DNA of 64,000 nt from Cyanidioschyzon merolae. Taxonomy: Eukaryota. This document shows positions 18,536 to 64,000 of the stretch, in pieces. The DNA is taken from the NCBI GenBank assembly GCA_000091205.1, contig AP006502.2; one strand, 5' to 3'. Each line of letters begins with the position of its first letter. Position 1 is the stretch's first letter. The position numbers and the translations under genes are program-made. The notes under the pieces are model-generated. The model ran no database searches. It was not told the DNA's origin and saw only the letters and a list, made by a program, of their open reading frames with translations.

Positions 18536-19051
18536 TCAAGTGGTGTTGCAGTCTCCATGGGAGGCGATCGCCGCGATGACTACAATCTGGGTCCAAGCCT
18601 GCTTTCCATCCAAGCCGAAGAGACACGAGCCTTCTGGAGACAGATCTCGTGCAAGGTATGATGCCAGTGTCGACACTCTGATGTGCTCAATGGGCCGAGG
18701 ATGTCCCACGACCATGGAGGCTACATAACTATCCGCCCGCAGGTGCCTTCCAGCCATTTCGGACCGGACCGCTGTTATCGGTTTCAGTTTATTCAGGCAC
18801 ATTTCAAGTCTGAAAGGCTGTACATCCAAGTTGGATCGCGTCAGCTCCTCGGGTCTCGTCTTCAGGAACGCACCTTGTCTGGTATGGATGGTGGCGTTGA
18901 AGACTCGCTGCGCGAACGCCATGCATTTCCTGCCTCTGGTTGAACTCGTGAATGCAAGGAGTCGTAGAACTGGTCCGCTGTGTTCCATTTGGTGCTGTGC
19001 CAGCTCCCCGTGATTCTCTATTGCCTGAGCGCCCAGCTGGCTTCTCACCAT
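18536..19051 (-). CDS. hypothetical protein (171-aa ORF)
   Basis: ORF only; the surrounding 18.2-19.1 kb has open frames on both strands. No recognisable motif. Confidence 0.15.
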   Translation of the reverse strand: MVRSQLGAQAIENHGELAQHQMEHSGPVLRLLAFTSSTRGRKCMAFAQRVFNATIHTRQGAFLKTRPEELTRSNLDVQPFRLEMCLNKLKPITAVRSEMAGRHLRADSYVASMVVGHPRPIEHIRVSTLASYLARDLSPEGSCLFGLDGKQAWTQIVVIAAIASHGDCNTT

Positions 19052-20617
19052 CTGGACCTTCTCAAGTGAAGGCCCAAGCTCACCCCATAGATTTTCTGAA
19101 ATGAAAGCACTTGTTTATGCCCTTAGGTGGAGATCGCCCAGGAAGGAGGCGGACTTGCGGAAGAAAGACAACATGTGTCCCGGTGGGTCATCGTGTGCTG
19201 GACGCTTCAGCGATTCGCTCAATGGAGCGATCATAATGCTTTACGATAGAAAACGTCCCTTCGATAGGTTCTCATCAAGGTGAGAATGGTGGAACGAAAA
19301 GCAGCTCTACCCACATAGAAGCGGAAAAGCTCGAGGGCAAGGAGAATGGAGAAATGCCACATCATCGAATAGAAGGACGTCATCAGACGTCAGCGGAAAA
19401 GTCGTCGATGATTCGACAATGTGGGTGCTGTTGTATGAGGCTTCTCTATAAGCCAAACTCGGGCTGCCAAATAAATCCACTGCAGCTAGAACAGATGATG
19501 ATGTCATCATTATCTTTGATTTCGATCAAACATGCAACGGGTTCCCTGCTCCACGAATACCCATATACGCTCCGACTGTTTCATCCGAGGCAAGTCTCAT
19601 CGACTGGAAAACAAACCGACGCTCCTGTGGTTCATACCAATGGTGACGCTCCAGGTAGGCTCTAGTTGCGGTTTCGGTGGAAGATGGCCGTGGCTGAACT
19701 AGGACTCTTTTTTGCGACTGTATTCCGGTCTTTCGAGGAGCATACGAACAAGCTGGTGAGAAACAGAGACGCCCTTGGCGGCTGCTATCGTCGCCTCTGC
19801 TTTCGGTAAAGTCATCAAAAGGCCGTTTTTCTACCGTTGACCGCAAGTGCTTCCTGGAAATATCCTTTTTTAATGCGAAGCGCATACGCCGCATTCTTTC
19901 TGCGTTCCTCAGCCATCTGCGTACGTTGGTATGCCTGCACTTAAGGAGGAATGCAGTTCTCCATGCACCGTTCAGTTAAGCGCATATCCTACATGAAATT
20001 TGTCTACGATCTAAAGCGTCCACGGCGTGGCGGTATCGATCGCCACCCAGACATCGCGGATCGGGTGGAACCCCGTTGATTTCAAAGATTAAAAAGACAG
20101 CGTAGTTTGTCTTTCAAGCCACATCACTTCCTTCAATCCGAAACTTAAGTGAGCTCGGAAAATGAACCTGTGAACAAGCCTTCGTCGGACAATATCGAGT
20201 TTGTTTCGTCGTCATTCAAGCGGCGAGCTTCGGTGCGCTTACCACTTGCCTTGAAACAAAACAGACGACGGAAGATCCTGAAACCACGTAAGCATCCGTG
20301 AGCTCTTATGACTTTATTTCAAAATTAAAAACTGTACATCTCATAAACTGTTCAAAATTGAACTGATGAACGGGAGCAGAGCGATCAGTTCCGTCTTCGA
20401 TACTCATCGAACACAAGTGCAGAAGCCAAGGCAGGCGCCAGAGTCGCCAATACTGAACGCCTTGCGTCAACTGTCGCCGCCGACACCGAAGCTAAGCGTT
20501 GGGTGCTCACGAATGCTCACCAGTGCTAGCAAAGTTCGGGCTTCTTTTTTGTCTCTATTTTAGTCCCAGCCGACGACTTGTGCGTTGCGTACTGGCTAGA
20601 CACGCTGGAAGAAAGAC

Positions 20618-23635: not shown

Positions 23636-24820
23636 ACTGCGAGCATCGAAGTTTGGAACATCTCTACCAATACGTGTTTTTTGGTCTGGATTGTCTCTGG
23701 TATTCAGGTTCAGCAGTAGGAATGTTTCCGATAGATTGGGGCATGGTGGTGGAATGACTTTATGATATCGCTGCGGGCCTGCGGGGGAAACGCCCTTGCC
23801 TCAACTTCTGGTTCATACTGCGGTGTTCCGGTGGTTGAACCACCGATTCAGAAGTACTTGCCTTGAACGCCAACACCCGAAATTGAAGATGTCAAACGCA
23901 ATCTATATTGCCACGTCTTTGTCAATCGATTCTACTCCATAGATCCCCTCAGAATGACCATCAAAGAGGCAACAGTTTGTGAAGTTTCCATGATACTCGC
24001 ACGAACATTGATGAAGAGACATGGATCGACACGGAATGAAGCAGGCTTCCATGGCAGACAGTCCACGTTGAATCGTACCTTGCCGATTTCGTACTGACAT
24101 GCGAATACTTAATCCATTTGGGACGTGTGCTCGTCTCGCTTCGTGAGGCTTCATTCGGCGTGCGCGGTAAACGCTTATATGGGTAGTCAAAGACACGCGA
24201 ACCGCTGGTTGTAAAGAAGAGCGAAGCGAGCATTCCAACAACATTGCGATTAGCGGCGATGCTGTCGTGTGTTCGCCTGCGACTCGCCGAGCGAACTGGA
24301 TTGTTCTCCAGTGCATCATTCATCAAAAGCGTTCCTCCTGGTTTTTCGTAATCATATGCCTGTATCCTGCTACGACATAACGTCGCTTTAGATCGCTCAA
24401 GAACGGTTATGGAGTTCTTTGCTGAGATCGGCGGTGAGCTGCTCTTCGCACCAGCCTATGCTCGCTGGTGAATCCACTCGATGGCGTCTTCGACGTGGGT
24501 ACCTGCCAATCTACATATCCACGGATCAATAAAAAGCATTCCTTCGCATCGATGAAATCGTTTTCCGAAAAGCTGTTCGGTACATGCACCAGCCCTGAGC
24601 TGTTGTGTTGCCGCTCTGCACATGCGCGAGATGCAGATCGTGACGTAAAAGATTGAAGGAATAGTGGATGTATACAAGGGAAAGGCGAGTTTCAATGGCT
24701 CTGTGCGTCCATAACGTCTTAATGCTGGAGGCGAAACCCGACACAGAGCGTAGGGACTACAGCTCTATTACCTTGGTGCATAACGGAAAAGGCGGTGAAA
24801 GATTCGGTCCCTGCAAGCAA

Positions 24821-26092
24821 GCAAGTTTAGAGCATTCGGGGAACTCCGAGCAGAGCACTGGCGGGGCTCGTTCACGATTTCTGGCGTCCTTGAAGGGTAC
24901 CGAAGAAAGTCTCTGGGGACAACGGAGACGGACGGAGTACCCATGTGCGTGCGTTCTGTGATACCAAGGCTTTAGTCGACAAACAAGACTCTTTTTCACC
25001 CGCTCAACACGCGTGACCAGAGGCAGTTTGTGGTGGACATCCAAATCGAGTTGAACGACACCATGACCGTCGCCGCAACTCCTATTCTAGAGAACGACAC
25101 GAAAGGCAGGAGCAGGAAGCAGATGCTGCTGCTGCTGCTGCTGCTGCTCAGCATTTCCAGCGCTCTACATGATCGAGAGCAGGGCTTCATCGACGGCAGG
25201 AAGCGCCCTAACAAATGAAAGGTCGGCGTCGCGACTTGGAGTTCGACTTCGACGCCCTGAGCACCTTTTCGAGCAAAGCGACACGCGCGGCACGCTTCAT
25301 GAAGGGAGCGTACGTCATCGTCCAAATGGCTTGTGCAGACGGCCTGTGGCAGTTCCTCGGATCGCACAAGCATCGTCTACCGCTTCGGTTGTGCGGAGGC
25401 AGGAAGCGTCCATTCGACTGCTCGATCCAAGAGCTGGGAACGCAAATGACCGATGAGTAACGTCGCTTGGTGGTAGCCAATGGCGCTGGACGTGCTGTGG
25501 CGCAGAAAGGCTGCACGCCTGCTTCTTGAACGACAGCATATGATAAACCATGAATCGATTCTGAAACCACACCCATGGATATGTTCAGGACGACGTGAAC
25601 GCATCACGAGCTCGGGCGCAAACAAAAACTGTTAGAGAAGAAGAGCGTGAGGCGGAGTCAGATGCACGGGATTGTGTACGGTAAGCTGACTTCACGACCG
25701 ATGGCGAGCTAATCGAAAATGAGAAGCATACTCTGGTGTGATTCTACTGCCAACAATGGGCGCAGGCAGTTTGTAGACCGCGACTCGATCGCCTCGATGA
25801 CCATTCGGGTATGTCCCATGCTTCCGGAGCGTTCAGCGGTATTGGCTCGAGCGAACGAACGGACGAACGAACATCCCGATGAGTCGTTGAGTGCTCCATA
25901 TGGATCATTTCCTGAAACGCTGCAGACTTTTGATGAAAATAACCAGCGTCCGGTCGACAGAGGATTCGATTCGCGCCTGCAGCTAGCCATGGTACCGCGC
26001 GTTTCACCAGTACTCCAGAGCTAAAGCGCGATCTCCATGTTTCCACTGGGAGCTGTTTTTCATGGGAGTTGTTGAACGAAAGCGATGGTGCA
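24821..26092. repeat. left arm of a 1.26-kb inverted repeat pair (reverse-complement of 38214..39474, ~98-99% identical)
   Basis: ORF-track proteins on opposite strands are near-identical (24996..25373- vs 38925..39299+; 25744..26106- vs 38201..38554+). Nucleotide homology stops sharply at 'GCAAGTTTAGAGCATTC' on the outer side and at '...GTTGAACGAAAGCG' on the inner side. Contains a (GCT)n microsatellite at 25125-25148. Confidence 0.9.
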
Positions 26093-27039
26093 TTACTCGA
26101 TATCACAGATTATAGACGTCCATGTCTATCAGGTTTATGCATGGGCCACATGCAGCAAGCAAGTCATCGAGGTTTCTGTTGTGCAAAGAGGTGATGGCTC
26201 CCAAGCAAACCGATTTGCGTATGTGTTGGTTTCTTCCGCGTGTGTGTGTGTGTGTGCCAGTCCATGGCTATGGCTGCTATTTATCCAGATGTCATGGTGT
26301 ATACCCCGTGGTACACAAGGATGAGCGCGACAATGTAAAATCTCTTACGTGCGAGACAAATGTCGTCCAAATGCGACCCAGAGAGTTCTCCATGACACCG
26401 TTATAGAATTGGATGGCTGGTGAACGGTTAAGGCCTTGCGGTCCGCCTGTGTACCTTTCAGATATTGTCTTTGCTGTCCGATACTGAAGCAGAATAGTTT
26501 CGGACGTAACCTCTAGACTTGAACGATAGCACTTCACGCGAACCTGTAGATAGTGTTTGATTCGTCGGCAAGTTCCTTGGTCCAGAGGAGTGGTCGAAAC
26601 CAAGCGAACATCGCCGGTCGCTAATGAAAGTACCGGTGATGATTTCCAGTTTCAACCTGTATCAAGCAGTGCCACCAGAATCTAGGCGATGCATCAGACA
26701 ACCGTTTCGAGCCTGACACGTGAGAGATAATGCTTTTGAACCTATCTTGTTCAGTGAAAATCGCACAACTTGGCTTGGGTGTGTTCTACTTTGAAACTTT
26801 CAAGCGCTTCCCTATTCCATGCCTCAGATATCCCTTGTGCCTTTGGTGCACTATGTATATGGCCCCAAGCGCATCTCTTGCATTCTTTTTACTTGGAAAC
26901 CCAGTAAGCGTTTCACGCTTCCCAGGGGTCATCGGCGACCCGGCTTTTGACGTTCCGTAAGACCTCTCCAGCATCACCTCCATAGAATCTTCCTTGGAAA
27001 CCTTCAGGGAATTTCCATACACTTGATTTGGCGATCCTT

Positions 27040-27212: not shown

Positions 27213-29561
27213 TTACCCGCGTGCCAAATATTTCCTTTTGAGCTCCCGGTACGTTTCCAGGAGCTCCGGATCCATACAGGCATGTGTATTGTCCAGTGGT
27301 TCATCGTCGAGGATGCGTTTCACAGCGACTTCCATTTTCTTCATGTTCCTCGTATAGGGAATACCTGGAACAACGATGACCGTATGAGGAACATGCCGCG
27401 GAGATAACGACTGCCGCAGACGATTCACGATACGGGATCGAAGCTCCGAGTCTTCCAGTGGGCCCAGAGGAGCTTCGTGCGCCAGTTTCACAAAGAGAAT
27501 GATACGCACATCGTCGTGCCAACGTTGACCAGCTACCAGCGAGTCGCTAACCTCCGGCATGCGTTCGAGGACTGTGTAGAAATCAGCGGACCCAAGACGC
27601 ACACCACCGGGTTTCAGAGTGGCATCGCTCCGTCCCCGAATGATCAACGAACGTTCATGACCTGGTTCGCGAACCACGACGCGTGCATAGTCACCGTGGT
27701 GCCACACAGTCTCCCCAAAAGTTCTGAAGTAGGCCGAGCGATACATGGATGCATCAGTGGTGTCGTTCCAAAAAAAGAGCGGCATCGAAGGACAGGCGTT
27801 CGTGCACACCAACTCACCGTCCTGATTCTCGACCGGATGGCCGTGTGCGTCAAAGACCTGTACCCCAAGACCCAGCGCGCATGACTGTAACTCACCAGCG
27901 TACACTGCCCGACGCTGGAGTCCCAGTGCAAAGCACCCGTTGATATCCGTACCACCGGACATGCTCCAGTAACGGACGTGGCGACCAACGCGCGCCCAGA
28001 CGTATCGAAAGTTTGCAACCGTCGACGGTGAACCGGTCACCAGCACTGCCTGCAATCGCCCTAGAGACCATCGAGCTGGATGAACACCTAGCTGTTCTTG
28101 GATCTGCAGAAACTTGGCACCACATCCAAAATGGGTGACTTGCTCCTCTGCGACAATGCGCCAGAGGGCATCCTGCGGTGCATAGCCTGTCGACAATGAC
28201 GGATCGGTGTCGCGAGGTGTACTTTGTGTGTTCTCAGGGGCACCCGCTTCAACGCTTGCCGGGTGCTCCAGGGATGACCAAACCGCAGCGCCGTCGTAGA
28301 GAATCAGTCGACAGCCACGCGCTAGAGCTGCAACACTCCAGTTCCACATCATCCAACCACAGGTCGTGTAGAAAAAAAGCGTATGCTCTGGACCCATTGC
28401 GTAGTGCAGCAACTGCTCCTTCTCCTGGGTGAGCAGGATACCAGCACCCTGCGCCATGCACTTGGGTCTACCAGTGGTGCCCGAACTGAACATGGTCACC
28501 ACTGGATCTCGATCGAAACGAATACGTCGAAACGGGATCGCTGGCAATGCCTCATCGACAGCGGGCTCAGGTGATGCGGACGGAAAGCACTGCCAGTTGG
28601 GAGCGTCCAGGTGCTCGACTAGCGCGTCTCGCGGGCATCCGTACGGCACGATCCATACCGGAATGCCGGTGACAGCGTTCTCCTCATTGTTTTCGTTTCG
28701 TTTTTCTGTTCCCAGACGAGATGCAATTTTCTGTGCCTTTTTTAAACAGTCGTGGCGCTTACCTTTGAAGACAACAGCGTCCGCTGTAATCAGCAGCCGT
28801 GGTTGAAGTTGTCCGAATCGATCGACAGCGGCATCTTCACCAAAGTCAGGAGAGCAGGATGCCCAGATACCTCCCAGACTCGTCACTGCGAGCATCGCTA
28901 TGATCGTCTCGGGGATATTGGGGAGAAACCCCACCACGTGTTCGCCGCAACTGAGATGCAGTTGTTGTTCGAGCGCTTCAGCGACACGCGCAACCCATGC
29001 ATACAACTGGCGGTAAGAGAGCTCGCGGCGGGGAATGCCAGAGCCCGGCTCGCTGCGGAACACAATACTTGCCTGGGGATTACGCAGAATGTTCTCAGCG
29101 TAGTTCACTCGAATGTTCGGTAACCACCGGAGGCCGGTTATCGGCATGGTTCCCACAGTTGTGCGAGTGTGGGAATGTACAGGACTGCTGCTTTCGTTGT
29201 CGTTCTGGTTGGCGCCAGTGCCTATGCGCGTGCCTCTGCAAGCGGTCTCCAGCTGAAGTGTAGCTTCTCGGTTCGTGATAGGGACGTTGGCGTCCGTCAC
29301 CGGGGCACCAGTATCATCATAGAGACGAATACCCGCAAAATCGATGAATGTTCGGTAAAAGTCAGCGTCATGTTCAACTGAGAGCCGGTGCAGCCGCTCA
29401 AAGTCAAAGCTTTCGTGGTGCTGCACGGCCTCTTTGCCATAGAGTCGGCGCTCGAAAGCAGCTGCAAACCGCACCACAGGGTCGTCTGGTTGCCAAGGCG
29501 TGCTGTCTAATACCTGGTGGCCTTCGCACCAGACGTCCACAGCGTCCGCGTCATCGTCCAT
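27213..29561 (-). CDS. AACS: acetoacetyl-CoA synthetase (acetoacetate-CoA ligase, AMP-forming)
   Basis: 782-aa ORF with ATG = rc of 29559..29561. N-terminal 'WQPDDPVVRFAAAFERRLYGKE...ANVPITNRE' region as in acetoacetyl-CoA synthetases. AMP-binding signature 'MFSSGTTGRPKCMAQGAG', 'GWMMWNW', C-terminal 'GRSDATLKPGGVRLGSADFY'. Carries a low-complexity insert (EKRNENNEENA). Confidence 0.9.
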   Translation of the reverse strand: MDDDADAVDVWCEGHQVLDSTPWQPDDPVVRFAAAFERRLYGKEAVQHHESFDFERLHRLSVEHDADFYRTFIDFAGIRLYDDTGAPVTDANVPITNREATLQLETACRGTRIGTGANQNDNESSSPVHSHTRTTVGTMPITGLRWLPNIRVNYAENILRNPQASIVFRSEPGSGIPRRELSYRQLYAWVARVAEALEQQLHLSCGEHVVGFLPNIPETIIAMLAVTSLGGIWASCSPDFGEDAAVDRFGQLQPRLLITADAVVFKGKRHDCLKKAQKIASRLGTEKRNENNEENAVTGIPVWIVPYGCPRDALVEHLDAPNWQCFPSASPEPAVDEALPAIPFRRIRFDRDPVVTMFSSGTTGRPKCMAQGAGILLTQEKEQLLHYAMGPEHTLFFYTTCGWMMWNWSVAALARGCRLILYDGAAVWSSLEHPASVEAGAPENTQSTPRDTDPSLSTGYAPQDALWRIVAEEQVTHFGCGAKFLQIQEQLGVHPARWSLGRLQAVLVTGSPSTVANFRYVWARVGRHVRYWSMSGGTDINGCFALGLQRRAVYAGELQSCALGLGVQVFDAHGHPVENQDGELVCTNACPSMPLFFWNDTTDASMYRSAYFRTFGETVWHHGDYARVVVREPGHERSLIIRGRSDATLKPGGVRLGSADFYTVLERMPEVSDSLVAGQRWHDDVRIILFVKLAHEAPLGPLEDSELRSRIVNRLRQSLSPRHVPHTVIVVPGIPYTRNMKKMEVAVKRILDDEPLDNTHACMDPELLETYRELKRKYLARG

Positions 29562-31655
29562 GAGACGCGGCCTTCTCGTGACTAGGTCTGTTCCACGTGA
29601 GCGGACTAGACGGGTACCACGGTGAACGCCAGGGATCGCTCACCGATCCCGATGCAAAGACACACAGTCAGGTACAGACACGCACCCTAGTTTATTCCAA
29701 AGCCCAAGTGGCGCTTCGAGGAGCAACGCTATTTTCCCCAGCGCTTTGGTGGGTAATCTGCAGATGTTGTCCTTCACAAAAATTGGTATCTGATTTGAGC
29801 AGCGCCGAGCGCGCTCACGCGTTTTCGATTTCGATCGATGCTATCGCTTCTGGTACCGGGAAAATCTGCGCAACTCGATGAATGCTGAAGGCTGTTTCAC
29901 TTGGAAGGGCAAGCTTCGGTTGGCAGGCTCTGTGAACGTTGTCGCGTCGTCGCTATAGCCGCGTCAGATTACGATAGGCCATGGGGCTGCTCGTCCTGTT
30001 CGTGCCTTGAGATTTTCTGGACTTTATTTTGTAGATATACTGCCACGTCATTCACAGTGCAACAAGAAGCGCACACGGATGCATACACTGTTAAAAGATG
30101 CTCTATCGTCTTCTCTGAGTTGGTTAGTCGAATGTTCCGGGCTGGAATTCATGGCGTCAGCGCAATCAACACGATTTACGACGCCCTCGAATCAGCGTTC
30201 GAAACATACCCGATATCATCATCCAGTTCATACGTACAGGACTCCACTATTCTGCTTTCCCAATGTCTAGTATGCTCAGATCATGCACGCTTCAAGTTTT
30301 TGATGTTCCTGTCTCAAGGAATTAGGTGCGCGGGGCACTGCTCGCTGCTTGATGAACGAGGAAACAAATTCGACGTCGTTCCTTGACGACTTGTTTACAA
30401 GCTCATGCCAAACGTTCGCTCAACTTATCGCGTCAAATAATTGGTTTCGTTCTAAAGATAAAGCCTATTCTTTTTGTGGCCATCGACGAAACGGCATTCG
30501 ACCCCAGCAATGGTATCTCGGGAGGAATATGCCTCAAGACGATCCTGTCTCTTCTGTTTGCTTGATAACAAGTCTTGGACTCGGACTTGAGTCGTCGCAA
30601 CAATCGCACAAAGCGGAGCGTGCGTCACCATTTTGCATAACGGGAGCGTAGACGGATCAAATCTCTGGAACTCCTTCTCAGATTGGATTCTCCGTCCACT
30701 GCCTGATCCGTCAAGAACAATACTGTGTTGCACAAATCCTCTGTCGAATAGAGCAGCTCGTCGTTGCGCGTGCTGCGGACAGAGAACTACCCTGAGGCAT
30801 TACCACAAAGACGCCTGCGATCGCCGGTTGCAGCTTCGGGATCGAAAAACAGTGGTCGGCATGCGGGGTGCCTTCCGTATCCTCCCCGGGGATGTACTGG
30901 TCGGTGAGGCAAGCTTTCATGTGCCGCAGGCCGCCTTGGAGAAGGGAATATGGTGGGCGTATGGAAAAGCCTGGATCTACTCAAGCGGTATCGCTGTGCA
31001 AGTCGTACCGAGGCCGAATACAAAAAACATTCGCAGATGGCTGCTTTTGCATATGCATGAAATGCGCCGACAGCAACCACAACCTGCGAAATCGGGACGC
31101 TATGGCTGCCTTGAACATCAAACGATGTGTGCGGTAATGACGACGAGACACGCGAGGCTGGCGCGAGCGACCCTCATGGGGCATCCTCTCAGGCTAGAGG
31201 TGAACAAGGAGAAGCTGAAGCAGATGGCAAGCGGCCGATCGAAAAAGGCCAGGAGTGGTCTGTGAGTGAGTATTCCCTTGCCCTGCATGGCCGTGGGACA
31301 TTTTCGTTCCATGGAGCATGCTGGTCTGCAACCATTTTTTAGCTGGCAAATCGATTAAACAGGCCAGGGATCGCCGACTGTGCCCTTGGTATCAGCGCGT
31401 GGTGAAGCAAGCATCATTCCACGCCCTACTTGCAAATTCCATAACCCATACCTCTTCTCGGATATACTGGTCACTTTATTCGTTCTATCGTGCGCCGAGT
31501 ACCTGCCCTGATCATCCGCGATAGCGCCTATTCCGCCTGTGCAGTCGCTGCACGGAGAGAGAACGGCGTCGCCGTACCACTGAGGACGTCGGGTCGAGGA
31601 ACGCTACCCCTGATGGGGAGTTAGAGTACATAATCTTTCTGGGAGCCTGGAAGCT

Positions 31656-31684
31656 CTGCATACAGACCTATAGTCTGTATGCAG
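31656..31684. other. perfect 12-bp-stem palindrome (CTGCATACAGAC-ctata-GTCTGTATGCAG) near the inferred left end of Fanzor copy 1
   Basis: Read directly from the sequence. It could be a sub-terminal hairpin of an IS200/IS605-like end, or an unrelated terminator-like hairpin. Confidence 0.4.
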
Positions 31685-32211
31685 CGCGAAGCGATACGCA
31701 AGGAGATGATTGCGACCAGGGTGGTGCCCAAACGCAGCATACCCGCTCCTTGTACCAGAATAAACTGCGTTTCGAACGAGTTGCTCAGATCTCAATTAAG
31801 TAGCTACCGCTGGGGGAGCATGAAGCACTGCTGTGGCAGACACGTCCGGCTCGCGGGACATTTCGCCTAAAGAATAAACTTTCGGCAATCTGGACGCCGT
31901 TTTCCCCTTTTAATGTTTACCATAGAGGGGAGAGAAATTGTCATATCGTTGCTAGTTAGTCGTGAGTCTCTGTTCTTTGTTCTACATAGTGCGCTCGAGA
32001 CGCGCACCGGAGAGATCAGGCAGGCATGAGTTATGACGCGCTTGTCGCTGTTGAATGGAAACGCGATCCAAATCTTTATGATCTACCTGTAAAGTACACG
32101 TTGTATTTGCATTGAAGTCGTAGCAAACTGTAGTTTCAGTTGAATCGTGTTTCAGCGCTCAAGTAAGAATATTCAAGTGCTTTTTCGCGGTTTATAGCAG
32201 AAGCGTTCAAA

Positions 32212-34477
32212 TTGTGTTCTTTCTCGAAAGAAACTAAAAAAAGAAAGTTATGGAAAAGCAAGTGGAAGATCCTCGAGGGCCGGTACCGCCGGCTGCCAGA
32301 AGAAAAACAAAAAACAATATGGAGTCCAGAGGAACAGGAGAGGACGAAGAAGCAAAGGCAGAAGGCTCTACTTCAAAGGCTGCAAGAAAGACGACTGTAC
32401 GACGAGATGGTGGTGAAAGCCTTTCTTCTTGGACATATCAGGTATCCGTACATACAAAAATTGCGAGAGGCCATCAGAAACCGTGTCGATTCATGCTCCA
32501 AGAGTGTTCGCAAGGCTTCTTTAGGACTGATGCGTATGGCCGGGGATATATTCCGCGACGTGACGCACATGGAAACGGTCGAGATTCCGGACGAGTTTTT
32601 CGATAAGACGTGTATAGGTCAGCTGATACTTGGTACAGAGGAATCGCGGAAGGAAAATGGGCTAGTCCATGGCCTCCACGAAAAAAACATCCCTTTTACA
32701 GCTTCAACGGCGCTCGGTACAAGGGTGACCGGGATATTTACAGCTATGGGGCGATGAAGTACCTCACGAACCTGAAGAACCATTTGACAACGAACCTCGA
32801 ACGTTTCATGATACGCGCCGTGTTTGCACTCTACCCGGGCATCTCGCGCAATGGGAAAGGGGCGATGATCAACGGCATCACGAAAGATCGCAGGCATGAA
32901 GATGAGGTCGAATTCGTCGACAAGAAGGCATCAAACGCGTGCACGAATTAAGCTTCTGTAATCCGTGCGGCTGTACAAGAGCACCGTGCGGTACTGGGGT
33001 TGGCGTATCCAACAGACAAGATATCAGAGTTGAAAGAAGATAAGGAAAGATACTATCGCCTCATCCTGCGATATTTCGTGTTTCTGGACTGTGAACTCGA
33101 ACGCAAGGCGGAAATGAAGCTGAGTGAGGAAAAAATGAAGAGTGGGAGAGACGGAAGGCTGTCCTGTTGGGGAAGCGCTTCAAGGTCGGTGCGTTATGCA
33201 ACATCAAGTCACATTTTGTGAGTATCGATTCCGGCGTCCTCTACGGCATCATGAGGGAGATCTGTTCGGAGTTCGATGTTAGCAGGGAGGAATTCTCCCG
33301 GGAAAACCGGGAGACGTACTGGAAGAACATCTTCGATTTCAAACGTCTCAAAATGAGCGAGCAAAAGTTATTCACTGGGGTGATTGAAACCGATGGAGTA
33401 GCCATGTGTGTACGCTATCGGCGGTTGAAGAAAGATCGGCCAGTTCCGCCCTCGGCTGCGCCCGTCACGAAGGATGAAGAAAAGGAGGAGGCTGGTCCTG
33501 TGGCGCAGGAGGTGCAGGATGACGATCTTGTCGTTGGCGCGGCGAAGCATGAAGATGAGAAGGAGGCGGATCCTGTGATGCAGGAGGTGCAGGATAACGC
33601 CTTTATGGTTGGCGCGGCGAAGCATGAAGAAACGAAGAAGGCGGGTCCTGCGGTGCAGAAAGTGCAGGAGAACGACTTTGTCGTTGGCGCGGACCCCGGA
33701 AACACAAAAAGCATAACTATCGCAGCACCGAAGCGTGCAGAAGATGGTACTGATGGTAACTTGCGTCAGAAGGACATGCGCCTTTTGAGGTGCTCGAGAG
33801 CAAGATACTATCGAGAATCAGGTGTAATGAATGCAAGGAAGAAAATTGAGGCTTGGAACGAAGGAATGAAGGATCACCTGGAAGCTTTAAGCGAGGTGAC
33901 TAGACGAGGAGCGGACTTTGAGGCTTTTCGGAAATTCATGGAAGTTCGTGTTGCCCATTGGGATGCGCTGTGGGAGGAGTATACCAAGCCCCGCTGGGCT
34001 CGTTTGCGAATGAATCTATACTGTGGGAAGCAGCAGGCGTTCGCGAATTTTTTTAATGAGTTGAGCGCCCTGAAGGAGGATGAAAGTCAGAGGCTCGTCG
34101 TAGCGTACGGAGCAGGGCGCTGGAAGATCCGAAAAGGGTGTACACCAGCTCCAACAACGAGAACGTACAAGGAGTGTGCACGGCGTTTTGTTACAGTATC
34201 GATAGTTGAGTTTCGAGCATCGTATACACACCATGAGCTGGGCTGTATACTTCAGAGAGTGGAGATGGAAAAGTGCCAACGGAGCCCTGAGGATATAGCA
34301 AAGTACGGACCACTGACGGAGGAGCAAATGGAAAGGAGGGCAAAAATTCGTGGACTACTTGCATTAGTAAGTGCAACTCCCAACGGCACGAAACGTATGG
34401 AATTTGTGAACCGTGACTTTAACGCCGCTATCAATATACGGAGATGTGCGGTACTGGAGAAGAGACCTCCATCATAG
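32212..34477 (+). pseudogene. TnpB-like / Fanzor-type RuvC nuclease gene, interrupted (two frame changes plus one in-frame TAA)
   Basis: Frame A 32212..~32686 (MCSFSKETKKRKLWKSKWK..., Lys/Arg/Glu-rich and NLS-like) runs to an A7 homopolymer at 32681-32687. Frame B continues (KKHPFYSFNGARYKGDRDIYSYG...KKASNACTN) to TAA 32949-32951, after which the same frame stays open (ASVIRAAVQEH...). Frame C 33128..34477 carries RuvC-I '[16 protein letters not shown]', the Fanzor1-like RuvC-II region 'VVAYGAGRW...IVEFRASYTHHELGC' and RuvC-III 'EFVNRDFNAAINIRRCAV'. Copies 2 and 3 conserve all three parts at the amino-acid level. Confidence 0.6.
33482..33705 (+). repeat. 3 x ~76-bp in-frame tandem duplication inside the Fanzor ORF, immediately preceding/including RuvC-I
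   Basis: Units start at 33482, 33560 and 33635 and encode [26 protein letters not shown] / [25 protein letters not shown] / [24 protein letters not shown]. Only the third unit keeps the catalytic Asp. Copy 3 has a single unit. Confidence 0.85.
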
Positions 34478-34762
34478 ACAAGAGAGCACTTTATTGAACA
34501 ATCTGTCCAAGTCGAACTATATGAGAGAAAGTTGGAAGCAGTAGGAGGTGGCCGATCCAAGAAGGCGCGGAGGCATCTGCACAACTGTCGGAGATGATTT
34601 GTCCAAGGCGCGGTTGCCGCCACGACTGTCCACGCCCGACATCGTTCGAGTTTGAACAGCGTTTTGGAGGCGCGTAATCGATTCATTCGGTTCGCGTTGG
34701 AGCTTTTCGCGGCGTTTTCGTTTCGTGACTGCCGGACACGGGTTTTTGTGAGAAACAGCGAC

Positions 34763-34990
34763 ATGGCGTCACCAAAGAAGACTGCGACGAAAGCTGCTTC
34801 AGCACCGAAAAAGGCTGCGGCGAAAACGAAGGGCGAACGGAAACCAAACGCTTACCAAGAGTTTATGAAGGCAGAGAGTGCCAAGATTCGGGAGTACAAC
34901 AAAGCAAAAGGAATCGAAATGAGGCCACCTGATATTTTCAAGGAGTGTGCGAAGAGATGGAACGAGAAAAAGTCCAAGACAAAGGCGTAA
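34763..34990 (+). CDS. small Lys/Ala-rich DNA-binding-like protein (possible HMG-box-like, 75 aa)
   Basis: ATG at 34763 within ORF 34652..34990: MASPKKTATKAASAPKKAAAKTKGERKPNAYQEFMKAESAKIREYNKAKGIEMRPPDIFKECAKRWNEKKSKTKA. It has a histone-H1-like basic N-terminus and weak resemblance to an HMG-box helix pattern. It lies 180 bp downstream of the copy-1 right end. Confidence 0.35.
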   Translation: MASPKKTATKAASAPKKAAAKTKGERKPNAYQEFMKAESAKIREYNKAKGIEMRPPDIFKECAKRWNEKKSKTKA

Positions 34991-53243: not shown

Positions 53244-53456
53244 ATCTATTTCCTCTACACCGACACGTTGCTTTCCAGGGAAACGAGTGGGAAGATCGTG
53301 TTCCCTCACTCGCCTAATACAAAGCGCCAATGGCTGCAGAAGCGCTGGTGCGGAGTACGCCGCACGCACGCACCAAACGCCGTTCGAACTTGAACGACGT
53401 CGGGCGTGTACAGTAGTGGCGGGAAAACCGTCTTAGATTAGAAGTCTCCAACTGAC

Positions 53457-56450
53457 GTGCAGATGCCTCCGCGCCTTTTTGGATCGGCCACCTCCTACTG
53501 CTTCCAACTTTCTCTCATATAGTTCGACTTGGACAGATTGTTCAATAAAGTGCTCTCTTGTCTATGATGGAGGTCTCTTCTCCAGTACCGCACATCTCCG
53601 TATATTGATAGCGGCGTTAAAGTCACGGTTCACAAATTCCATACGTTTCGTGCCGTTGGGAGTTGCACTTACTAATGCAAGTAGTCCACGAATTTTTGCC
53701 CTCCTTTCCATTTGCTCCTCCGTCAGTGGTCCGTACTTTGCTATATCCTCAGGGCTCCGCTGGCACTTTTCCATCTCCACCTTCTGAAGTATACACCCCA
53801 GCTCATGGTGTGTATACGATGCTCGAAACTCAACTATCGATACTGCAACAAAACGCCGTGCACACTCTTTGTACGTTCTCGTTGTTGGAGCTGGTGTACA
53901 CCCTTTTCGGATCTTCCAGCGCCCTGCTCCGTACGCTACGACGAGCCTCTGACTTTCATCCTCCTTCAGGGCGCTCAACTCATTACAAAAATTCGCGAAC
54001 ACCCGCTGCTTCCCACAGTATAGATTCATTCGCAAACGAGCCCAGCGGGGCTTGGTATACTCCTCTCCCAGCGCATCCCAGTGGGCAACACGAACTTCCA
54101 TGAATTTCCGAAAAGCCTCAAAGTCCGCTCCTCGCCTAGTCACCTCGCTCAAAGCTTCCAGGTGATCCTTCATTCCTTCATTCCAAGCCTCAATTTTCTT
54201 CCTTGCATTCATTGTACCGGATTCTCGATAGTATCTTGCTCTCGAGCACCTCAAAAGGCGCATGTCCTTCTGACGCAAGTTACCATCAGTACCATCTTCT
54301 GCACGCTTCGGTGCTGCGATGGTTATGATATGTGTGTTTCCGGGGTCCGCGCCAACGACAAAGTCGTTCCCCTGCACTTTCTGCACCGCAGGACCCGCCT
54401 TCTTCGTTTCCTCATGCTTCGCCGCGCCAACCATAAAGGCGTTATCCTGCACCTCCTGCATCACAGGATCCGCCTCCTTCTCATCTTCATGCTTCGCCGC
54501 GCCAACGACAAGATCGTCATCCTGCACCTCCTGCGCCACAGGACCAGCCTCCTCCTTTTCTTCATCCTTCGTGACGGGCGCAGCCGAGGGCGGAACTGGC
54601 CGATCTTTCTTCAACCACCGATAGTGTACATACAATGCTACTCCATCGGTTTCAATCACCCCAGTGAACAACTTTTGCTTGCTCGTTTTGAGACGTTTGA
54701 AATTGAAGGTGTTCTTCCAGTAGGTTTCCCGGTTTTCACCGGTGAAGTCCTCCCTGCTAACATCGAACTCCGGACTGTTCTCCCTCATGATGCCGTAGAG
54801 GACGCCGGAATCGATACTCACAAAGTGTGACTTGATGTTGCATAACGGAACGACGTTGAAGCGCTTCCCCATTCGGACAGCCTTCCGTCTCTCCTACTCT
54901 TCATTTGTCTCTTCACTCAGCTTCATTTCCGCCTTGCGTTCGAGTTCACAGTCCAGAAACACGAAATATCGCAGGATGAAGCGATAGTATCTTTCCTTAT
55001 CTTTTTTCAACTCTGATATCTTGTCTGTTGGATACGCCAACCCCAGTACCGCACGGTGCTCTTGTACAGCCGCACGGATTACAGAAGCTTAATTCGTGCA
55101 CGCGTTTGATGCCTTCTTGTCGACAAATTCGACCTCATCTTCATGCCTGCGATCGTTCGTGATGCCGTTGATCATCGCCCCTTTCCCATTGCGCGAGATG
55201 CCCGGGTAGAGTGCAAACACGGCGCGTATCATGAAACGTTCGAGGTTCGTTGTCAAATGGTTCTTCAGGTTCGTGAGGTACTTCATCGCCCCATAGCTGT
55301 AAATATCCCGGTCACCCTTGTACCGAGTACCGTTGAAGCTGTAAAAGGGATGTTTTTTCGTGGAGGCCATGGACTAGCCCATTTTCCTTCCGCGATTCCT
55401 CTGTACCAAGTATCAGCTGACCTATACACGTCTTATCGAAAAACTCGTCCGGAATCTCGACCGTTTCCATGTGCATCACATCACGATACATCTCCCTCAC
55501 CAAATGCATCAGTCCTGACGACGCCTTGACAATACTCTTGGTGTACGAGTCGACACGTTTTACGATAGCGTCTCGCAACAATTCCCTGTGGGGATCCTTG
55601 ATATGTCCAAGAAGGAAGGTTTTCACCACCTTCTCGTTGTACAGTCGTCTTTCTTGCCGCCTTCGACGTAGGGCCTCTCCCTTTCGGTTCTTCTTCTATT
55701 CCTTTTCTCCTGGACTCGGCACTGTTTTTTGTTTTTTCTGGCAGCCTGCGACCCTGGGCCTCCAGGATCGTGGACATGCTTTTCCATAGCTTTCCTTTTT
55801 GTTTTTTTTTTGAAGAAGAACGCTCTTTGAACCCTTCTGTTATATACTGCAAAAAAACACTAGACTAGAGTTGTTTGAAGTTTGAAACAAAAACGAACTG
55901 AAAGGCTGTACTTTGCAATGACCTCAACGAAAATACAACTTTTAGAACAGAGCTACACGAATGAGATCGAGATCGCGTCTCTCTTCAACGACGGCACGCA
56001 CATCGTGTCAGTTAACTGCGCGATCTCCCAAGCGCGCTCGCTATGCGCAATGCGTGCACCGCGCGAGACGCTACTCGGATCGATGAAGGACACGTGTTCG
56101 ACGCCGCATTGGCACATGCGCGTTAGCATCGCACTGGAGCTGAAATAAAGTATCATAGACCGGAAACTCACGTGGAACGATCTCTTGCTATAAGCTATGT
56201 CGCTCGTGCACATCGCAGTACGGACCTGACATACATGGAGATGTAGGGGCCTGGCACGATACCCCTCGACGCTTCTATCAAAAGCGTAGTCGCGGTAGCA
56301 TCTTACGCTTGTGCGGGTAAGGTATGCATCACACCAGCTTGGAAGGGTTTCGTTCGGTTTATTGATCGTAAATAAAGTAGGCACAGTCGTATAACCAAGT
56401 ATGAATATACGTTTATTCTCTATCCTTGTTATGCATGCAGCGCAGACGCT
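53457..56450 (-). mobile_element. Fanzor/TnpB-like element, copy 2 (inverted relative to copy 1)
   Basis: The rc of 53457.. matches the copy-1 right end exactly up to 'GCGGAGGCATCTGCAC' and then diverges. The internal 3x tandem repeat lies at ~54340-54570. The 5' region is weakly homologous to copy 1 as far as ~56450. Confidence 0.6.
53562..55852 (-). pseudogene. TnpB-like / Fanzor-type RuvC nuclease gene (copy 2), same interruptions as copy 1 plus an extra N-terminal frameshift
   Basis: 436-aa ORF 53562..54872 is ~93% identical to the copy-1 C-terminal ORF (RuvC-I GADPGNT, RuvC-III NRDFNAAINI). ORFs 55089..55370, 55312..55629 and 55481..55852 match copy-1 frames B and A. The homopolymer is A6 here (T6 at 55353-55358 on the + strand). 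Confidence 0.6.
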
Positions 56451-61303: not shown

Positions 61304-63309
61304 TCACGCGCAATGTCCGACGATCATGAGAGGTAAATGAATATCCACTCGCAGACGCCTCCCAGTCTTTCTCGACCGGCCTGCTTCTGTCGGTTTCAGC
61401 ATCTCCCTATACATTTCGACGCTGAAAGGCTGTCCAGCAAAGTTGGCTCGCGTCTGCTCCGCGGGTCTCTTCTTCAGCACCGCGCATCTTCGGATACTGA
61501 TAGCAGCGATAAGGTCTCGGCTCACAGACTCCATGCGTTTCTTGCCGCCGCCTGTACACGGCAATGCGAATAGGCCTCGAACTTTCGCCCTCCTTCCCAT
61601 TTGCTCTTCCGTCAACGCTCCGTACTTTCTTACATCCTCGGGGATCCGCTGACGCTTTTCCATCTCGACCCTCTGAAGTGTACACATCAGCTCGTGGTAC
61701 ACGTAGGACGTTCGGAACTCATCTGTAGGTATCGTGACGAAACGCCGTGCGCTCTCCTTGTACGCTCGTGTCGACGGAGCTGGCGTAGTCCCTTTTTTCG
61801 ACGCCCAGCGCTCTGCCCCGTATGCAACACGAGCCTTTGACTCTCGTCCTCTTTGAGGGCGTTCAGCTCGTTGGAAAAGTTGGCGAATGCACGCTGCTTC
61901 CCACAAAAGAAGCTGATACGCAGACGAGCCCAACGGGGCTTTGTGTACTCTTTCCACAGCGCCTCGTACTGAGAAACGCGAACTTTCACGAATTCCCGAA
62001 AAGCTCGAACGTCCGCCCGACGGCTCGTCACCTGGCTGATCGCTGCTAGGTGTTCTTTGACTCCTGAGTTCCACTTCTCACTCTGTATCCTTGGATTCCT
62101 TACCCAGACTCTCGGTAGCACCCAGCGCTTGAGAACCTCAAAAGACACATGCCTTTCTGACGTAAGTTACCTTCAATGCCGTTTCCCCCGCGTTCGAGTG
62201 CTGCGATGGTCACGGTATCCGTGTTCTCGGGGTCCGCGCCAACGACAAAATCGTTGCTCTGCACCTGCTGTGCCGCAGGGCCCGCCTCCTTTTCTCCACG
62301 CTTCGTCAAAATCGACAACAAAAACGGAATAGGACGATCCGCCTTCAACTGCCGATCGTGCACATACATGGCTACTCCATCGGTTTCGATGACGCCTGTG
62401 AATACCTTTTGCTTGCTCGCATGGAAACGTTTGAAATCGAAGATATTCATCCAGTATGTCTCCCGATTTTCGGCGTTGAACTCTATGTTCCTTACATCGG
62501 ACTCTGGACAGACCTCCTTCATGATGCCGTCAACGGCTGTGGAGTCGATAGTCACGAAATGTGATCTGATGTTGCACATTGGAACCACGTTGAAGCGCGT
62601 CCCCAGAAGCGCCGCCTTCCCTCTCTCTTACTCTTCATTTCTCCCTCACCCAGCTCCTTTTCGGCCTTGCGTTCGAGTTCTCAGTCCAAAAACACGAAAT
62701 AGCGCAGGATGAGGTGATAGTATCTTTCCTTATCTTTTTTCGTATGTGCAACCTTTTTGCTGGGTTGACAAGCCCCAAGACTGCACGGTGCTCTTGTAGA
62801 GCAGCACGGATTCCAGAAGCTTCGTTGTTTCTCCTGCGTGATGTCTTCTTGTCGACGAATTCGATCTCATCTTCACGCTGGCGATGGTTCGTGACGTCAT
62901 TGATGAAGGCCCGTATCCATCTACTAGACAGGTCCGGGTAGAGTGCAAACACGGCGCGTATCATGGAGCGTTCGATGCTCATGGTCAAGTGGTTCTTCAG
63001 GTTCGTGAAGGACTTTTTCGCATCGTAGGTGTAAATATCCGCCTCAGCCTCGTACCGTCTACAGCTGAAGCGATATTCGGCGTAATTCTAGTGGAGAACG
63101 TGCACTCGCTCGTCTCTCCTCGTCGTTCTCCCTGTTCCAAGCATCAGGTTGCTGATATATATCATATGGAAAAATTCCTCCGGAATCTCGACTATTTCCA
63201 TGTGCGTCAGGTCGTCGTGCATCTCGTTCACCAAATGGATTCGTTCTGACGAGGCCTTTATATTACTCATGGAGCACGAGTCGACACGGTTTCTGATGGC
63301 CTCTCGCAA
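61304..63309 (-). pseudogene. degenerate TnpB-like / Fanzor-type nuclease gene (copy 3), frameshifted; RuvC-III Asp/Asn replaced
   Basis: See above. The frame A to frame B junction is in frame here, separated only by one TAG, which shows the ancestral ORF was continuous across that point. Confidence 0.5.
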
Positions 63310-64000
63310 CTTTTCCTTTTACGGATCCATGACATGTTTAAGAAGGTAGGCTTTCGCCACCGTCCAGTCGTACTGTTGTCTTTCCCGCAGCCTTTTCTGC
63401 GTGGGGCCTCCTGCCTTTGCTTCCTTGTCCTCTACTGTTCCTCTAGACTCGGCACTGCTTTTTGTCTTTTCCGGCAGCTGGCAACAGCGGTCCTTAAGGA
63501 TCCTCTATTTGCATCCCCATAACTTTTTTTATTTTTGAAAACGAACGCACTTTGAACGGATCTGATATGAACCGCGAAAAATCACTTGAATAAACTGAAC
63601 TGAGGCTTGAAACACGATTGGATTGAAAGCGCACACTTTGCTATGACTTCAATGCAAATACAACTTGTACTTTAGAGCAACAAGCTAATGATCAGAATTG
63701 CATTTCTCTTCAACTGCGAGATACGAATCGTGTCTCATTCCTGCCAGATTTAGAGGTGCGCGGATCGACCGGGCTTTAGAAAAAAGAACAGATACGAACC
63801 ACTAGCTAGGAAACACAAGTTCTTTGGCAATCTACGGTAAACGTTTCAAGGGGAAAAGGTGTCCACATTGTCGGAAGTTTACCTTCTACGCGGAAAGTGC
63901 CGCAAGCCGGACGAGTCTGCACGTCTTGCGCTTCATGCTCCCTCCAGTGTTGGGTGGTGTTGTAAGATATGAGCTGCTCTTGTGCAATCCGGTTTATTCT
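61400..64000 (-). mobile_element. Fanzor/TnpB-like element, copy 3 (diverged; 5' part runs off the window)
   Basis: ORFs 61304..62074 (…RMESVSRDLIAAISIRRCAVLKKRP, degenerate RuvC-III), 61687..62148, 62100..588 (…FVVGADPENT, RuvC-I, single repeat unit), 62635..62988 and 63088..63309 are homologous to copy-1 frames C, B and A. The 5' non-coding region 63530-64000 is ~80-85% similar to copy 1 31748-32210. Confidence 0.55.

Follow-up and report, generated by a model that had tools for sequence, protein, structure and literature searches.

Background

The closest described system is CMe-1A of the red alga Cyanidioschyzon merolae. It was published in 2013 (Bao & Jurka, Mobile DNA 4:12; Repbase; PMC3627910) as a Fanzor1 element present about 150 times in the genome of this species. 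Identity to the consensus is about 80% for each genomic copy, the encoded Fanzor1 protein has 734 amino acids, and no TIRs or TSDs are reported (PMC3627910). The 5' 635 bp of CMe-1A are 95% identical to a separate repeat, TE-N2_CMe (PMC3627910). A C4 zinc finger between RuvC-II and RuvC-III was part of the motif described in 2013, and it is found in SpuFz1 and in TnpB. In Fanzors, the canonical RuvC-II Glu is replaced by Gly or Pro, and an alternative Glu is located a few dozen residues downstream (PMC10530073). The catalytic residues of SpuFz1 are D383, E541, and D606 (PMC11423790).

In the present study, we analysed a stretch of 64,000 nucleotides of C. merolae DNA (the window), in which an initial annotation had recognized a repeated element encoding a TnpB-like or Fanzor-type RuvC nuclease. 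We found that this element (copy 1) is very probably a CMe-1A copy, full-length but inactivated, from a transposase-less Fanzor1 element family of C. merolae. The initial annotation could not place the family in any known Fanzor clade; it is CMe-1A with its Fanzor1 protein, CMe-1, already known since the 2013 publication from the same genome (PMC3627910).

Identity and extent of the element

Copy 1 sits in nuclear DNA of C. merolae beside a host gene of strain 10D (27213-29561, minus strand), the product of which is identical at 782/782 residues to XP_005539418.1. The CMe-1A consensus (3169 bp) was taken from supplement 2 of PMC3627910. By blastn, positions 84-3137 of this consensus corresponded to window positions 31425-34633 with 84-87% identity, and the end alignments reached about 31342 and about 34663, where the consensus positions are 1 and about 3169, respectively. 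The element and its relatives in the window are as follows.

31342..34666, plus strand: CMe-1A copy 1, entire element (consensus blastn and end alignments)
31342..31990, plus strand: 5' module of copy 1, matching consensus positions 1 to about 650 (consensus alignment)
53376..56009, minus strand: CMe-1A copy 2, from consensus position 687 up to its end, carrying another 5' module (identity to copy 1, 93%)
61351..64000, minus strand: CMe-1A copy 3, consensus positions 413-3084 (identity to copies 1 and 2, about 75%)

The 5' limit of copy 1 is somewhere within about 31342-31425, and the 3' limit is directly past a terminal hairpin. This span, from about 31342/31425 to about 34663, is longer than the 31650-34582 originally assigned to the element. 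No obvious TSD was seen at the approximate ends of copy 1, the 5' end being placed only within about 80 nt. CMe-1A has no transposase.

The consensus also matched copies 2 and 3. The TE-N2_CMe-type 5' module is missing from copy 2, which has another 5' module in its place, and the copies from metagenomes have alternative 5' modules, joined at about consensus position 660. Copy 3 is heavily decayed and continues beyond the end of the window. Solo 3' fragments were found at 18740-19081 and 31039-31271, and also in a further locus (L052:1133-1340).

The 3' end and the mode of mobilisation

34642..34663, plus strand: 3'-terminal hairpin (TCGTTCGA GTT TGAACAGCG TT; copy alignments)

A sharp, copy-conserved 3' end had been proposed at 34582. 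The sharpness stands, as similarity among unrelated copies ends within about 3 nt past the terminal hairpin, but the position does not: copies 1 and 2 are alignable beyond 34582, as far as the hairpin, and the end is at about 34663. Most related copies have a hairpin at the same spot. Its stem comes in at least two sequence versions, which show compensatory changes (CGTTCGA/TCGAACG versus ACGTTTTTC/GAAAGACGT). Conservation of the 3' region (0.85) is only slightly higher than that at neutral sites (about 0.81). For the 3' region, RNAalifold gave almost no consensus structure beyond short stems, and an Rfam search gave no match. The literature on the family reports no omega-RNA, activity, or target motif for the CMe-1 clade.

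The element might be a non-autonomous, 3'-anchored transposon of the rolling-circle/HUH type (Helitron-like), in which the hairpin would be the transposition signal and Fanzor1 the cargo. We consider this rather unlikely, although several observations agree with it. The hairpin is at the extreme 3' end and has been kept via compensatory changes, and the 3' ends are conserved whereas the 5' ends are truncated or have one of several alternative modules. In addition, the solo 3' fragments exist, neither TIRs nor TSDs are known from the publication (PMC3627910), and Helitron2 carries Chlamydomonas Fanzor1 elements. However, the termini are not of the 5'-TC...CTRR-3' form; the consensus begins with CGATGAC..., and the element ends with ...GCGTT. 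The hairpin could equally belong to an omega-RNA or a terminator, and recombination between copies also gives 5' heterogeneity. The Helitron-like reading bears on how the element moves and does not conflict with the identification of copy 1 as an inactivated CMe-1A element.

Decay of the coding region

By tblastn, CMe-1 showed 50-75% amino-acid identity to copy 1, spread over three frames. Frameshifts and the in-frame TAA were located by alignment to the consensus ORF.

32250..34605, plus strand: degenerate Fanzor1 (CMe-1) coding region, consensus codons 1-734 (codon-aware alignment, 87% nucleotide identity)
32302..32302, plus strand: frameshift 1, +1 nt, consensus codon 18
32689..32690, plus strand: frameshift 2, +2 nt, consensus codon 147
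32949..32951, plus strand: in-frame TAA, consensus codon 233, also in copy 2
33130..33130, plus strand: frameshift 3, -1 nt within an A-run, consensus codon 293
33167..34477, plus strand: residual 436-aa ORF with a TTG start, WED-RuvC-TNB part, ending at the premature TAG
33468..33692, plus strand: 3 x 75-nt in-frame tandem repeat (TRF)
34475..34477, plus strand: premature TAG, consensus codon 692, also in copy 2, 42 codons before the consensus end

Because of the three frameshifts and the two premature stops, copy 1 is unable to make the 734-aa protein and is a pseudogene. The initial annotation had read a protein of about 750 aa across three frames. A protein of about 730-750 aa is indeed readable between 32250 and 34605, but the changes of frame are true frameshifts relative to the family consensus, and stops are present as well. 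Copy 1, which had been put forward for direct testing, is therefore not a suitable candidate for it. Codon-aware comparison with the consensus ORF showed copies 2 and 3 to be pseudogenes too.

The real start of the coding region of copy 1 is the ATG at 32250 (MEKQVEDP...). The NLS-like N-terminus quoted earlier (KKRKLWKSKWK...RRLPEEKQK) comes from reading the leader and the first 17 codons out of frame. The N-terminus of the consensus CMe-1 is still basic (GKKRKT...KTKKQKREARRQR). The 'long middle region' described between the N-terminus and the nuclease is present, but it is partly made up of the tandem repeat. This repeat, which is shared with copy 2 and is absent from copy 3 and the consensus, duplicates the peptide directly before RuvC-I, and the extra units have GAAKHE where GADPGN is expected.

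All the RuvC motifs quoted in the initial annotation were found in the residual 436-aa C-terminal ORF. Retention and use of this ORF, for example as a truncated nuclease or a regulator, seems very improbable to us. It is open over 1311 nt in copies 1 and 2 alike despite 48 differences. Between these copies, dN/dS is 0.46, with 18 synonymous changes versus about 10.5 expected if neutral, but these are low counts, and synonymous differences are inflated by NG86 when transitions and transversions are not corrected for. The likeness of the two copies could equally be maintained by gene conversion. Furthermore, the ORF starts with TTG in copy 1, and in copy 2 its Met corresponds to an internal codon of the consensus. 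It is without the REC lobe, which holds the guide-target duplex in solved Fanzors, and the repeat insertion adjoins RuvC-I in both copies.

We give hardly any credence to a functional copy 1 gene, in which introns, programmed frameshifts, or sequencing errors would account for the frame changes and a full-length Fanzor would be made. Stitching the frames together gives a protein with 75% identity to CMe-1, and the last ORF retains the catalytic residues. However, intact relatives use one unbroken ORF (722/752 aa in locus L004 and 747 aa in L020), and therefore neither an intron nor recoding is required. The frameshift sites are not the same in copies 1, 2, and 3, in-frame stops are found on top of the frameshifts, and the host gene in the window is an exact match to the finished reference genome.

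Past selection on the protein has left its mark on the CMe-1 family sequences. Compared with the consensus, copies 1 and 2 have a dN/dS of 0.20, and conservation at the three codon positions is 0.877, 0.897, and 0.813, versus about 0.80-0.82 in the non-coding 5' parts. An ORF of more than 650 aa is kept in only 3/81 related metagenome loci.

Relationship to Fanzor1 nucleases

The coding region of copy 1 did not arise by chance: its stitched protein had 53 homologues (E=0 to 1e-46, except for the weakest at 2.7e-4), and the family profile search gave 4,738 clusters (50% identity). In Pfam, the sole label of the CMe-1 lineage is DUF8286. The profile search recommended in the initial annotation had a divided outcome. 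With the window protein, a Pfam-A search gave no TnpB/OrfB_IS605 or Cas12f1-like_TNB (OrfB_Zn_ribbon) match; with PF07282 (OrfB_Zn_ribbon), the best value among nine relatives was E=0.23, from one relative only. In the PDB, no match was obtained with a single sequence (phmmer) or a 9-sequence profile. In contrast, a 116-member family profile matched PpFz1 (9cf0, E=8.7e-26), SpuFz1 (8gkh, 6.9e-22), and GtFz1 (9cer, 4.3e-16), and the match to SpuFz1 was nearly end to end.

The structural prediction likewise gave a Fanzor fold with a RuvC core. The AlphaFold model of a family member, P0049 (pLDDT 92.2, pTM 0.90), superposes on SpuFz1 over the full length (TM 0.66-0.72, E about 1e-20). The best seven Foldseek matches of the model were all Fanzor1 structures (E 4e-20 to 4e-14, TM 0.58-0.72), and Cas12 variants followed. 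The window protein shares only about 30% identity with P0049, and its fold is deduced from this model. By sequence profile and predicted fold, the CMe-1 family protein is a Fanzor1 nuclease homologue, in agreement with the initial annotation. Only the deep family profile and the structure model exposed this relationship; therefore, the lack of a TnpB/Fanzor profile match, proposed earlier as grounds for abandoning the Fanzor call, is a misleading test that leads to a wrong rejection.

A non-Fanzor protein with an RNase-H fold (DDE transposase or integrase), sharing the motifs by chance and agreeing with the blank Pfam-A, single-sequence, and 9-sequence searches, was rejected as having a negligible probability, because the deep profile matches three Fanzor1 structures along nearly the entire length, the fold search gives Fanzor1 only and then Cas12 proteins, and the sequence is that of the CMe-1 protein of the original Fanzor1 set.

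The catalytic positions in copy 1 are as follows.

33692..33694, plus strand: RuvC-I Asp codon (GADPGNT), aligned to SpuFz1 D383
34097..34123, plus strand: VVAYGAGRW at the canonical RuvC-II position, with Gly for the catalytic Glu of TnpB, aligned to SpuFz1 'VVMGDWSD'
34208..34210, plus strand: relocated RuvC-II Glu codon (IVEFRAS), aligned to SpuFz1 E541
34415..34417, plus strand: RuvC-III Asp codon (NRDFNAAINI), aligned to SpuFz1 D606

The motifs thus map to the D/E/D triad, as had been predicted. The triad is invariant across the CMe-1 family and aligns to residues 777/935/1000 of the 8gkh chain, which are D383/E541/D606 of native SpuFz1. The suggested relocation of the RuvC-II Glu was borne out, with Gly at the canonical site and an alternative Glu (VDEFRT) 33 residues downstream. 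The zinc finger, described earlier as degenerate, has lost its CCCC pattern: in the alignment to SpuFz1, CMe-1 and copy 1 have 0/4 of the aligned cysteines, and most CMe-1 relatives keep only one ('LLWC'). Because the four cysteines common to SpuFz1 and TnpB are missing, the TNB domain of CMe-1 is unlike that of every characterised Fanzor. The CMe-1 protein was in the founding Fanzor1 set; therefore, we read the loss of the zinc finger as clade-specific and not as a ground for exclusion.

Possible activity of intact members

Copy 1 is a relic, and no activity is expected from it. For intact family members, we infer RNA-guided cleavage by homology to characterised Fanzor1 and TnpB. The protein, with its basic NLS-like N-terminus, would bind an omega-RNA transcribed at the element's 3' end. 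This RNA would overlap the end of the ORF and extend into the flanking DNA, which would provide the guide. Indirect signs of such an RNA are the extension of the ORF up to the 3' end and the terminal hairpin with its compensatory variants. The protein-RNA complex would then cut matching DNA beside a short target-adjacent motif, and the cutting may favour retention or copying of the element.

We tentatively propose, as a conceivable but doubtful extension, that the CMe-1 clade forms a large Fanzor1 lineage devoid of the zinc finger (4,738 clusters), the few intact members of which may be active RNA-guided nucleases in an alga living in hot, acidic conditions, with an omega-RNA ending in the compensatory 3' hairpin and a 3'-anchored, hairpin-dependent spread. 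If true, the clade would represent a structurally distinct, possibly thermotolerant type of Fanzor; the dead copy in the window is excluded from such a reading.

Comparison with known systems

The published CMe-1A element and copy 1 are alike in the genome, the layout of the 734-codon ORF, and the whole-length identity (84-87%). In both, the ORF layout reaches to about 60 nt or less from the 3' end, and TE-N2_CMe makes up the 5' part. Unlike the consensus, copy 1 has three frameshifts, two premature stops, and a 150-nt tandem duplication.

SpuFz1 (PDB 8GKH/9CEU-9CEZ), PpFz1, and GtFz1 have a bilobed fold in common with the CMe-1 family model, whereas the sequence identity is only 13-15%. SpuFz1 also resembles CMe-1 in having Gly at the canonical RuvC-II position, but its TNB/NUC sequence is 'VCPRC...GCTNPNC', and that of CMe-1 is 'YTHHE...LALVSTT'.

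The mariner/Tc1-associated Fanzor1 elements (e.g. PUl-1) are resembled by P0049, a more distant member of the same family (about 30% identical), which is directly 3' of a DDE_3 transposase ORF (loci L001-L003). This association of Fanzor1 was reportedly termed 'Fanzor1c' by Jiang et al. in 2023. CMe-1A differs from these elements in being without a transposase.

Bacterial TnpB (IS200/IS605 and IS607; e.g. ISDra2) is like CMe-1A in its RuvC core, in an ORF that extends up to the right end, and in a subterminal or terminal hairpin at that end. Unlike bacterial TnpB, CMe-1A has no Pfam OrfB match, no TnpA partner, and no zinc finger, and it has a relocated Glu and a far larger REC region at the N-terminus and resides in the nucleus of a eukaryote.

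Identity and extent of the element

The names Fanzor1 and Fanzor2 were coined by Bao and Jurka in 2013, and a single Fanzor1 family, CMe-1A, was given for C. merolae (PMC3627910). CMe-1A has a consensus of 3169 bp, a protein (CMe-1) of 734 aa, and about 150 copies whose identity to the consensus is about 80%; it was originally listed without TIRs, with TSDs not determined and classification unknown, and its first 635 bp at the 5' end match a separate repeat, TE-N2_CMe, at 95% identity (PMC3627910). We took the consensus from the supplement of that paper (PMC3627910) and compared it with the window.

Copies of CMe-1A in the window
31425-34633 (+), copy 1; consensus 84-3137, 84-87% identity
~53376-56009 (-), copy 2; consensus 687-3137, 93% identical to copy 1
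~61351 to window end (-), copy 3; consensus 413-3084 at 81.5%, ~75% identical to copy 1

By its sequence, the flagged locus (copy 1) is a decayed member of CMe-1A, which carries no transposase. The initial annotation, which had proposed a Fanzor-type element that it could not place in any known clade and regarded as worth direct testing, was right about its kind (Fanzor1) but not about its novelty, as the family was published from the same genome in 2013, nor about its testability, as the copy is decayed. Alignments of the ends place its limits at ~31342 and ~34663-34666; the extent first proposed, 31650-34582, lies inside these and is too short.

Homology to Fanzor1 proteins

Pfam-A scans of the window ORFs, the stitched copy 1 protein, and nine relatives found no TnpB or Fanzor family, and phmmer and a 9-sequence profile gave zero matches in PDB. 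For the stitched protein, 53 homologues were found, some of them intact at 616-752 aa, and a family profile searched against 1.84 billion representatives matched 4,738 clusters of 50% identity at E ≤ 1e-3, of which 673 reached E ≤ 1e-30. The sole Pfam label on the family was DUF8286 (PF26935), with weak matches. Whereas the profile search suggested by the initial annotation failed with these standard tools, it succeeded with a profile from a deep family alignment (A3, 116 sequences), which matched three solved Fanzor1 proteins: PpFz1 of Parasitella (E = 8.7e-26), SpuFz1 of Spizellomyces (E = 6.9e-22, profile positions 23-599 of 628), and GtFz1 of Guillardia (E = 4.3e-16).

For the structure prediction we modelled a family member, P0049, a relative of CMe-1. 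AlphaFold with a 15-sequence alignment gave an unusable model (pLDDT 60.6); the 116 sequences were used instead and gave a confident one (pLDDT 92.2, pTM 0.90). In a Foldseek search of PDB, the first seven entries matching this model were Fanzor1 structures, at full length (E 4e-20 to 4e-14, TM 0.58-0.72), and Cas12 families ranked after them.

Catalytic residues and zinc finger

The motifs read in the initial annotation all lie in the ORF at 33167-34477.

Motifs of copy 1
33692-33694 (+), Asp codon of GADPGNT
34097-34123 (+), VVAYGAGRW
34208-34210 (+), Glu codon of IVEFRAS
34415-34417 (+), Asp codon of NRDFNAAINI

In the HMM alignment, the family DPG Asp, DEFRT Glu, and RD Asp, which are invariant across the family alignment, align to residues 777, 935, and 1000 of the SpuFz1 chain in PDB 8GKH. 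Subtraction of the 394-residue MBP offset gives D383, E541, and D606, the SpuFz1 residues that bind metal for catalysis (PMC11423790). The canonical RuvC-II site is occupied by Gly ('VVAYGAG', against 'VVMGDW' in SpuFz1), and the same rearrangement was reported for Fanzors by Jiang et al. (PMC10530073). The CCCC finger of SpuFz1 and TnpB ('VCPRC ... GCTNPNC') aligns to 'YTHHE ... LALVSTT'; CMe-1 has none of the four cysteines at the aligned positions, and most relatives retain just one. The motif assignments, the relocated RuvC-II glutamate, and the suspected degeneration of the zinc finger were therefore correct, given the alignment to SpuFz1, the Gly at RuvC-II, and the missing cysteines.

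Decay of the copies and past selection

The protein of copy 1 (~730-750 aa; 32250-34605, +) is readable only via three frame changes. Its defects were read from a codon-aware alignment to the consensus ORF.

Reading frame and defects of copy 1
33167-34477 (+), longest clean ORF, 436 aa, TTG start
32302 (+), frameshift of +1 nt, consensus codon 18
32689 (+), frameshift of +2 nt, consensus codon 147
32949 (+), in-frame TAA, consensus codon 233
33130 (+), frameshift of -1 nt, consensus codon 293
33468-33692 (+), two in-frame 75-nt insertions, making a 3 x 75-nt tandem repeat
34475 (+), premature TAG, consensus codon 692 of 734

The true start is the ATG at 32250, and the 'NLS-like' KKRKLWKSKWK... 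of the first reading turned out to be the leader and first 17 codons read out of frame; the N-terminus of the CMe-1 consensus is basic nonetheless. Introns or programmed frameshifting in copy 1 were excluded because two relatives, L004 and L020, have one ORF and the defects differ between copies: copy 2 has frameshifts of its own, and six frameshifts and six stops were counted in copy 3. No activity is expected of copy 1 itself.

Copy 2 has in common with copy 1 both premature stops (codons 233 and 692) and the 75-nt repeats (a tandem duplication of 150 nt); the flanks of the two are unrelated. Origin of the pair from a segmental duplication was rejected, as similarity ends at the element ends and the 5' modules differ. 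The common stops and repeats therefore point to an ancestor that was already defective, or to exchange between copies; in the first case a defective copy would have been mobilised in trans, in the second recombination or gene conversion would have taken place between copies.

Comparison of copies 1 and 2 with the consensus gave a dN/dS of ~0.20. Hot-spring metagenomes supplied 81 related loci (L004 and 80 others), in which the match to the consensus was 0.877, 0.897, and 0.813 at codon positions 1, 2, and 3, respectively, and ~0.80-0.82 in the non-coding 5' parts; an ORF of >650 aa was retained in just three. The dN/dS and the codon-position pattern are signs of past selection on the protein. 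These figures agree with the remark made in 2013 that the family is old and few copies remain intact (PMC3627910).

The 3' end

Most copies end in a hairpin at the 3' terminus, and similarity between unrelated copies ends within ~3 nt beyond it.

Terminal hairpins
34642-34663 (+), copy 1
53376-53398, copy 2

The stems are mainly CGTTCGA/TCGAACG and ACGTTTTTC/GAAAGACGT. As at least two or three stem sequences occur at this one spot (L004-L084, last ~45 nt, and the window copies), pairing was kept via changes on both sides. Across the last 200 nt of 44 copies, RNAalifold recovered just two short, near-invariant stems (covariation term -0.02), and conservation of these 200 nt outside the hairpin is slightly above that of neutral sites. 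A long stem in the consensus MFE structure (CAGTAGT/ACTACTG) shows wobble-compatible changes only and is broken in copy 1, and nothing in Rfam matched the 3' region at E ≤ 1. The hairpin could serve in DNA, as the signal of a hairpin-dependent transposition route, in RNA, as an omega-RNA 3' scaffold, or in both ways.

One of the related loci, L052, has a second match at 1133-1340 that covers just the last ~100 nt of the element (GGAAGCGTCTGCAC to the hairpin), possibly a solo 3' end or a different element with the same terminus.

Leaders, fragments, and other lineages

The 5' part of the copies consists of TE-N2_CMe-like or other recurrent modules, all joined at consensus ~660. At least three or four unrelated recurrent leaders precede the same core (L005-L084, ~140 nt upstream of consensus 700), and the published form bearing TE-N2_CMe is one among several. 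Fragments with only the 3' part of CMe-1-like elements also occur, and a second, far more diverged Fanzor1-like family (~36-39% amino-acid identity to CMe-1/P0046) is present.

Other Fanzor1-like sequences in the window
31039-31271 (+), 3'-terminal fragment of a diverged CMe-1-like lineage, amino acids ~612-729
18740-19081 (-), 3'-terminal fragment of the same lineage, amino acids ~612-729
24814-26094 (+), second family, 5'-truncated, degenerate
38204 to ~40000 (-), second family, degenerate

The two fragments have in common a palindromic tail of their own (CCATGG.CGTGGGACAT...CCATGG). The one at 31.0-31.3 kb stops ~70 nt before copy 1, so that copy 1 sits practically at the 3' terminus of an older element. 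The second-family copies are inverted around 12 kb with an intact host gene and are 98-99% identical over 1.27 kb; this near-identity suggests that they were recently duplicated, inserted, or homogenised by gene conversion. We rejected the 99% inverted repeats (24.8-26.1 and 38.2-39.5 kb) as TIRs of a 14.6-kb composite element surrounding copy 1, since they are these second-family copies with an intact acetoacetyl-CoA synthetase (AACS) gene between them.

In three assemblies (L001-L003; GCA_013573075.1, GCA_013572825.1, and GCA_013572995.1), a 301-aa DDE_3 ORF is followed after 38 nt, on the same strand, by the intact P0049 (652 aa, ~30% identical). The DDE_3 ORF is of the Tc1/mariner transposase type, which makes the two a transposase-plus-Fanzor1 pair.

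Genomic surroundings

The window has a G+C content of ~54%, and its host ORFs are long and intron-less.

Host genes and a short ORF
27213-29561 (-), AACS, 782 aa, 782/782 identical to XP_005539418.1 of C. merolae 10D
52233-53369 (-), Sulfotransfer_2 paralogue, ORF start within ~10 nt of the 3' end of copy 2
58163-59236 (-), second Sulfotransfer_2 paralogue
34763-34990 (+), 75-aa lysine-rich ORF (MASPKKTATKAASAPKK...), starting ~100 nt 3' of the end of copy 1

The AACS ORF was found in the same 90% cluster as XP_005539418.1. Further neighbours are ordinary nuclear genes (WDR75-like, Twinkle-like primase-helicase, Nrap, and the two sulfotransferases). The 75-aa ORF had no Pfam match.

Discussion

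Fanzor function has been known since 2023. For annotation, copy 1 is a repeat to mask: a relic, in a finished model genome, from a family on record since 2013. The remaining interest is not in this locus but in the CMe-1 clade, which is large, invisible to Pfam, hairpin-ended, and without a zinc finger; intact consensus-like members, not copy 1, are therefore reasonable subjects for biochemistry. As Pfam-A and single-sequence PDB searches miss the clade entirely, a scan built on those would throw out true Fanzors.

By homology to SpuFz1, GtFz1, PpFz1, and TnpB, an intact CMe-1 protein would most likely move into the nucleus and associate with an omega-RNA made from the 3' end of its element; the complex would then cut guide-matching DNA beside a short motif with the putative RuvC site D431/E603/D672. 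To our knowledge, a zinc finger is a feature of every characterised Fanzor and TnpB. In this respect, the CMe-1 clade, without the finger, differs from the tested Fanzor1 and TnpB enzymes, and the difference is real.
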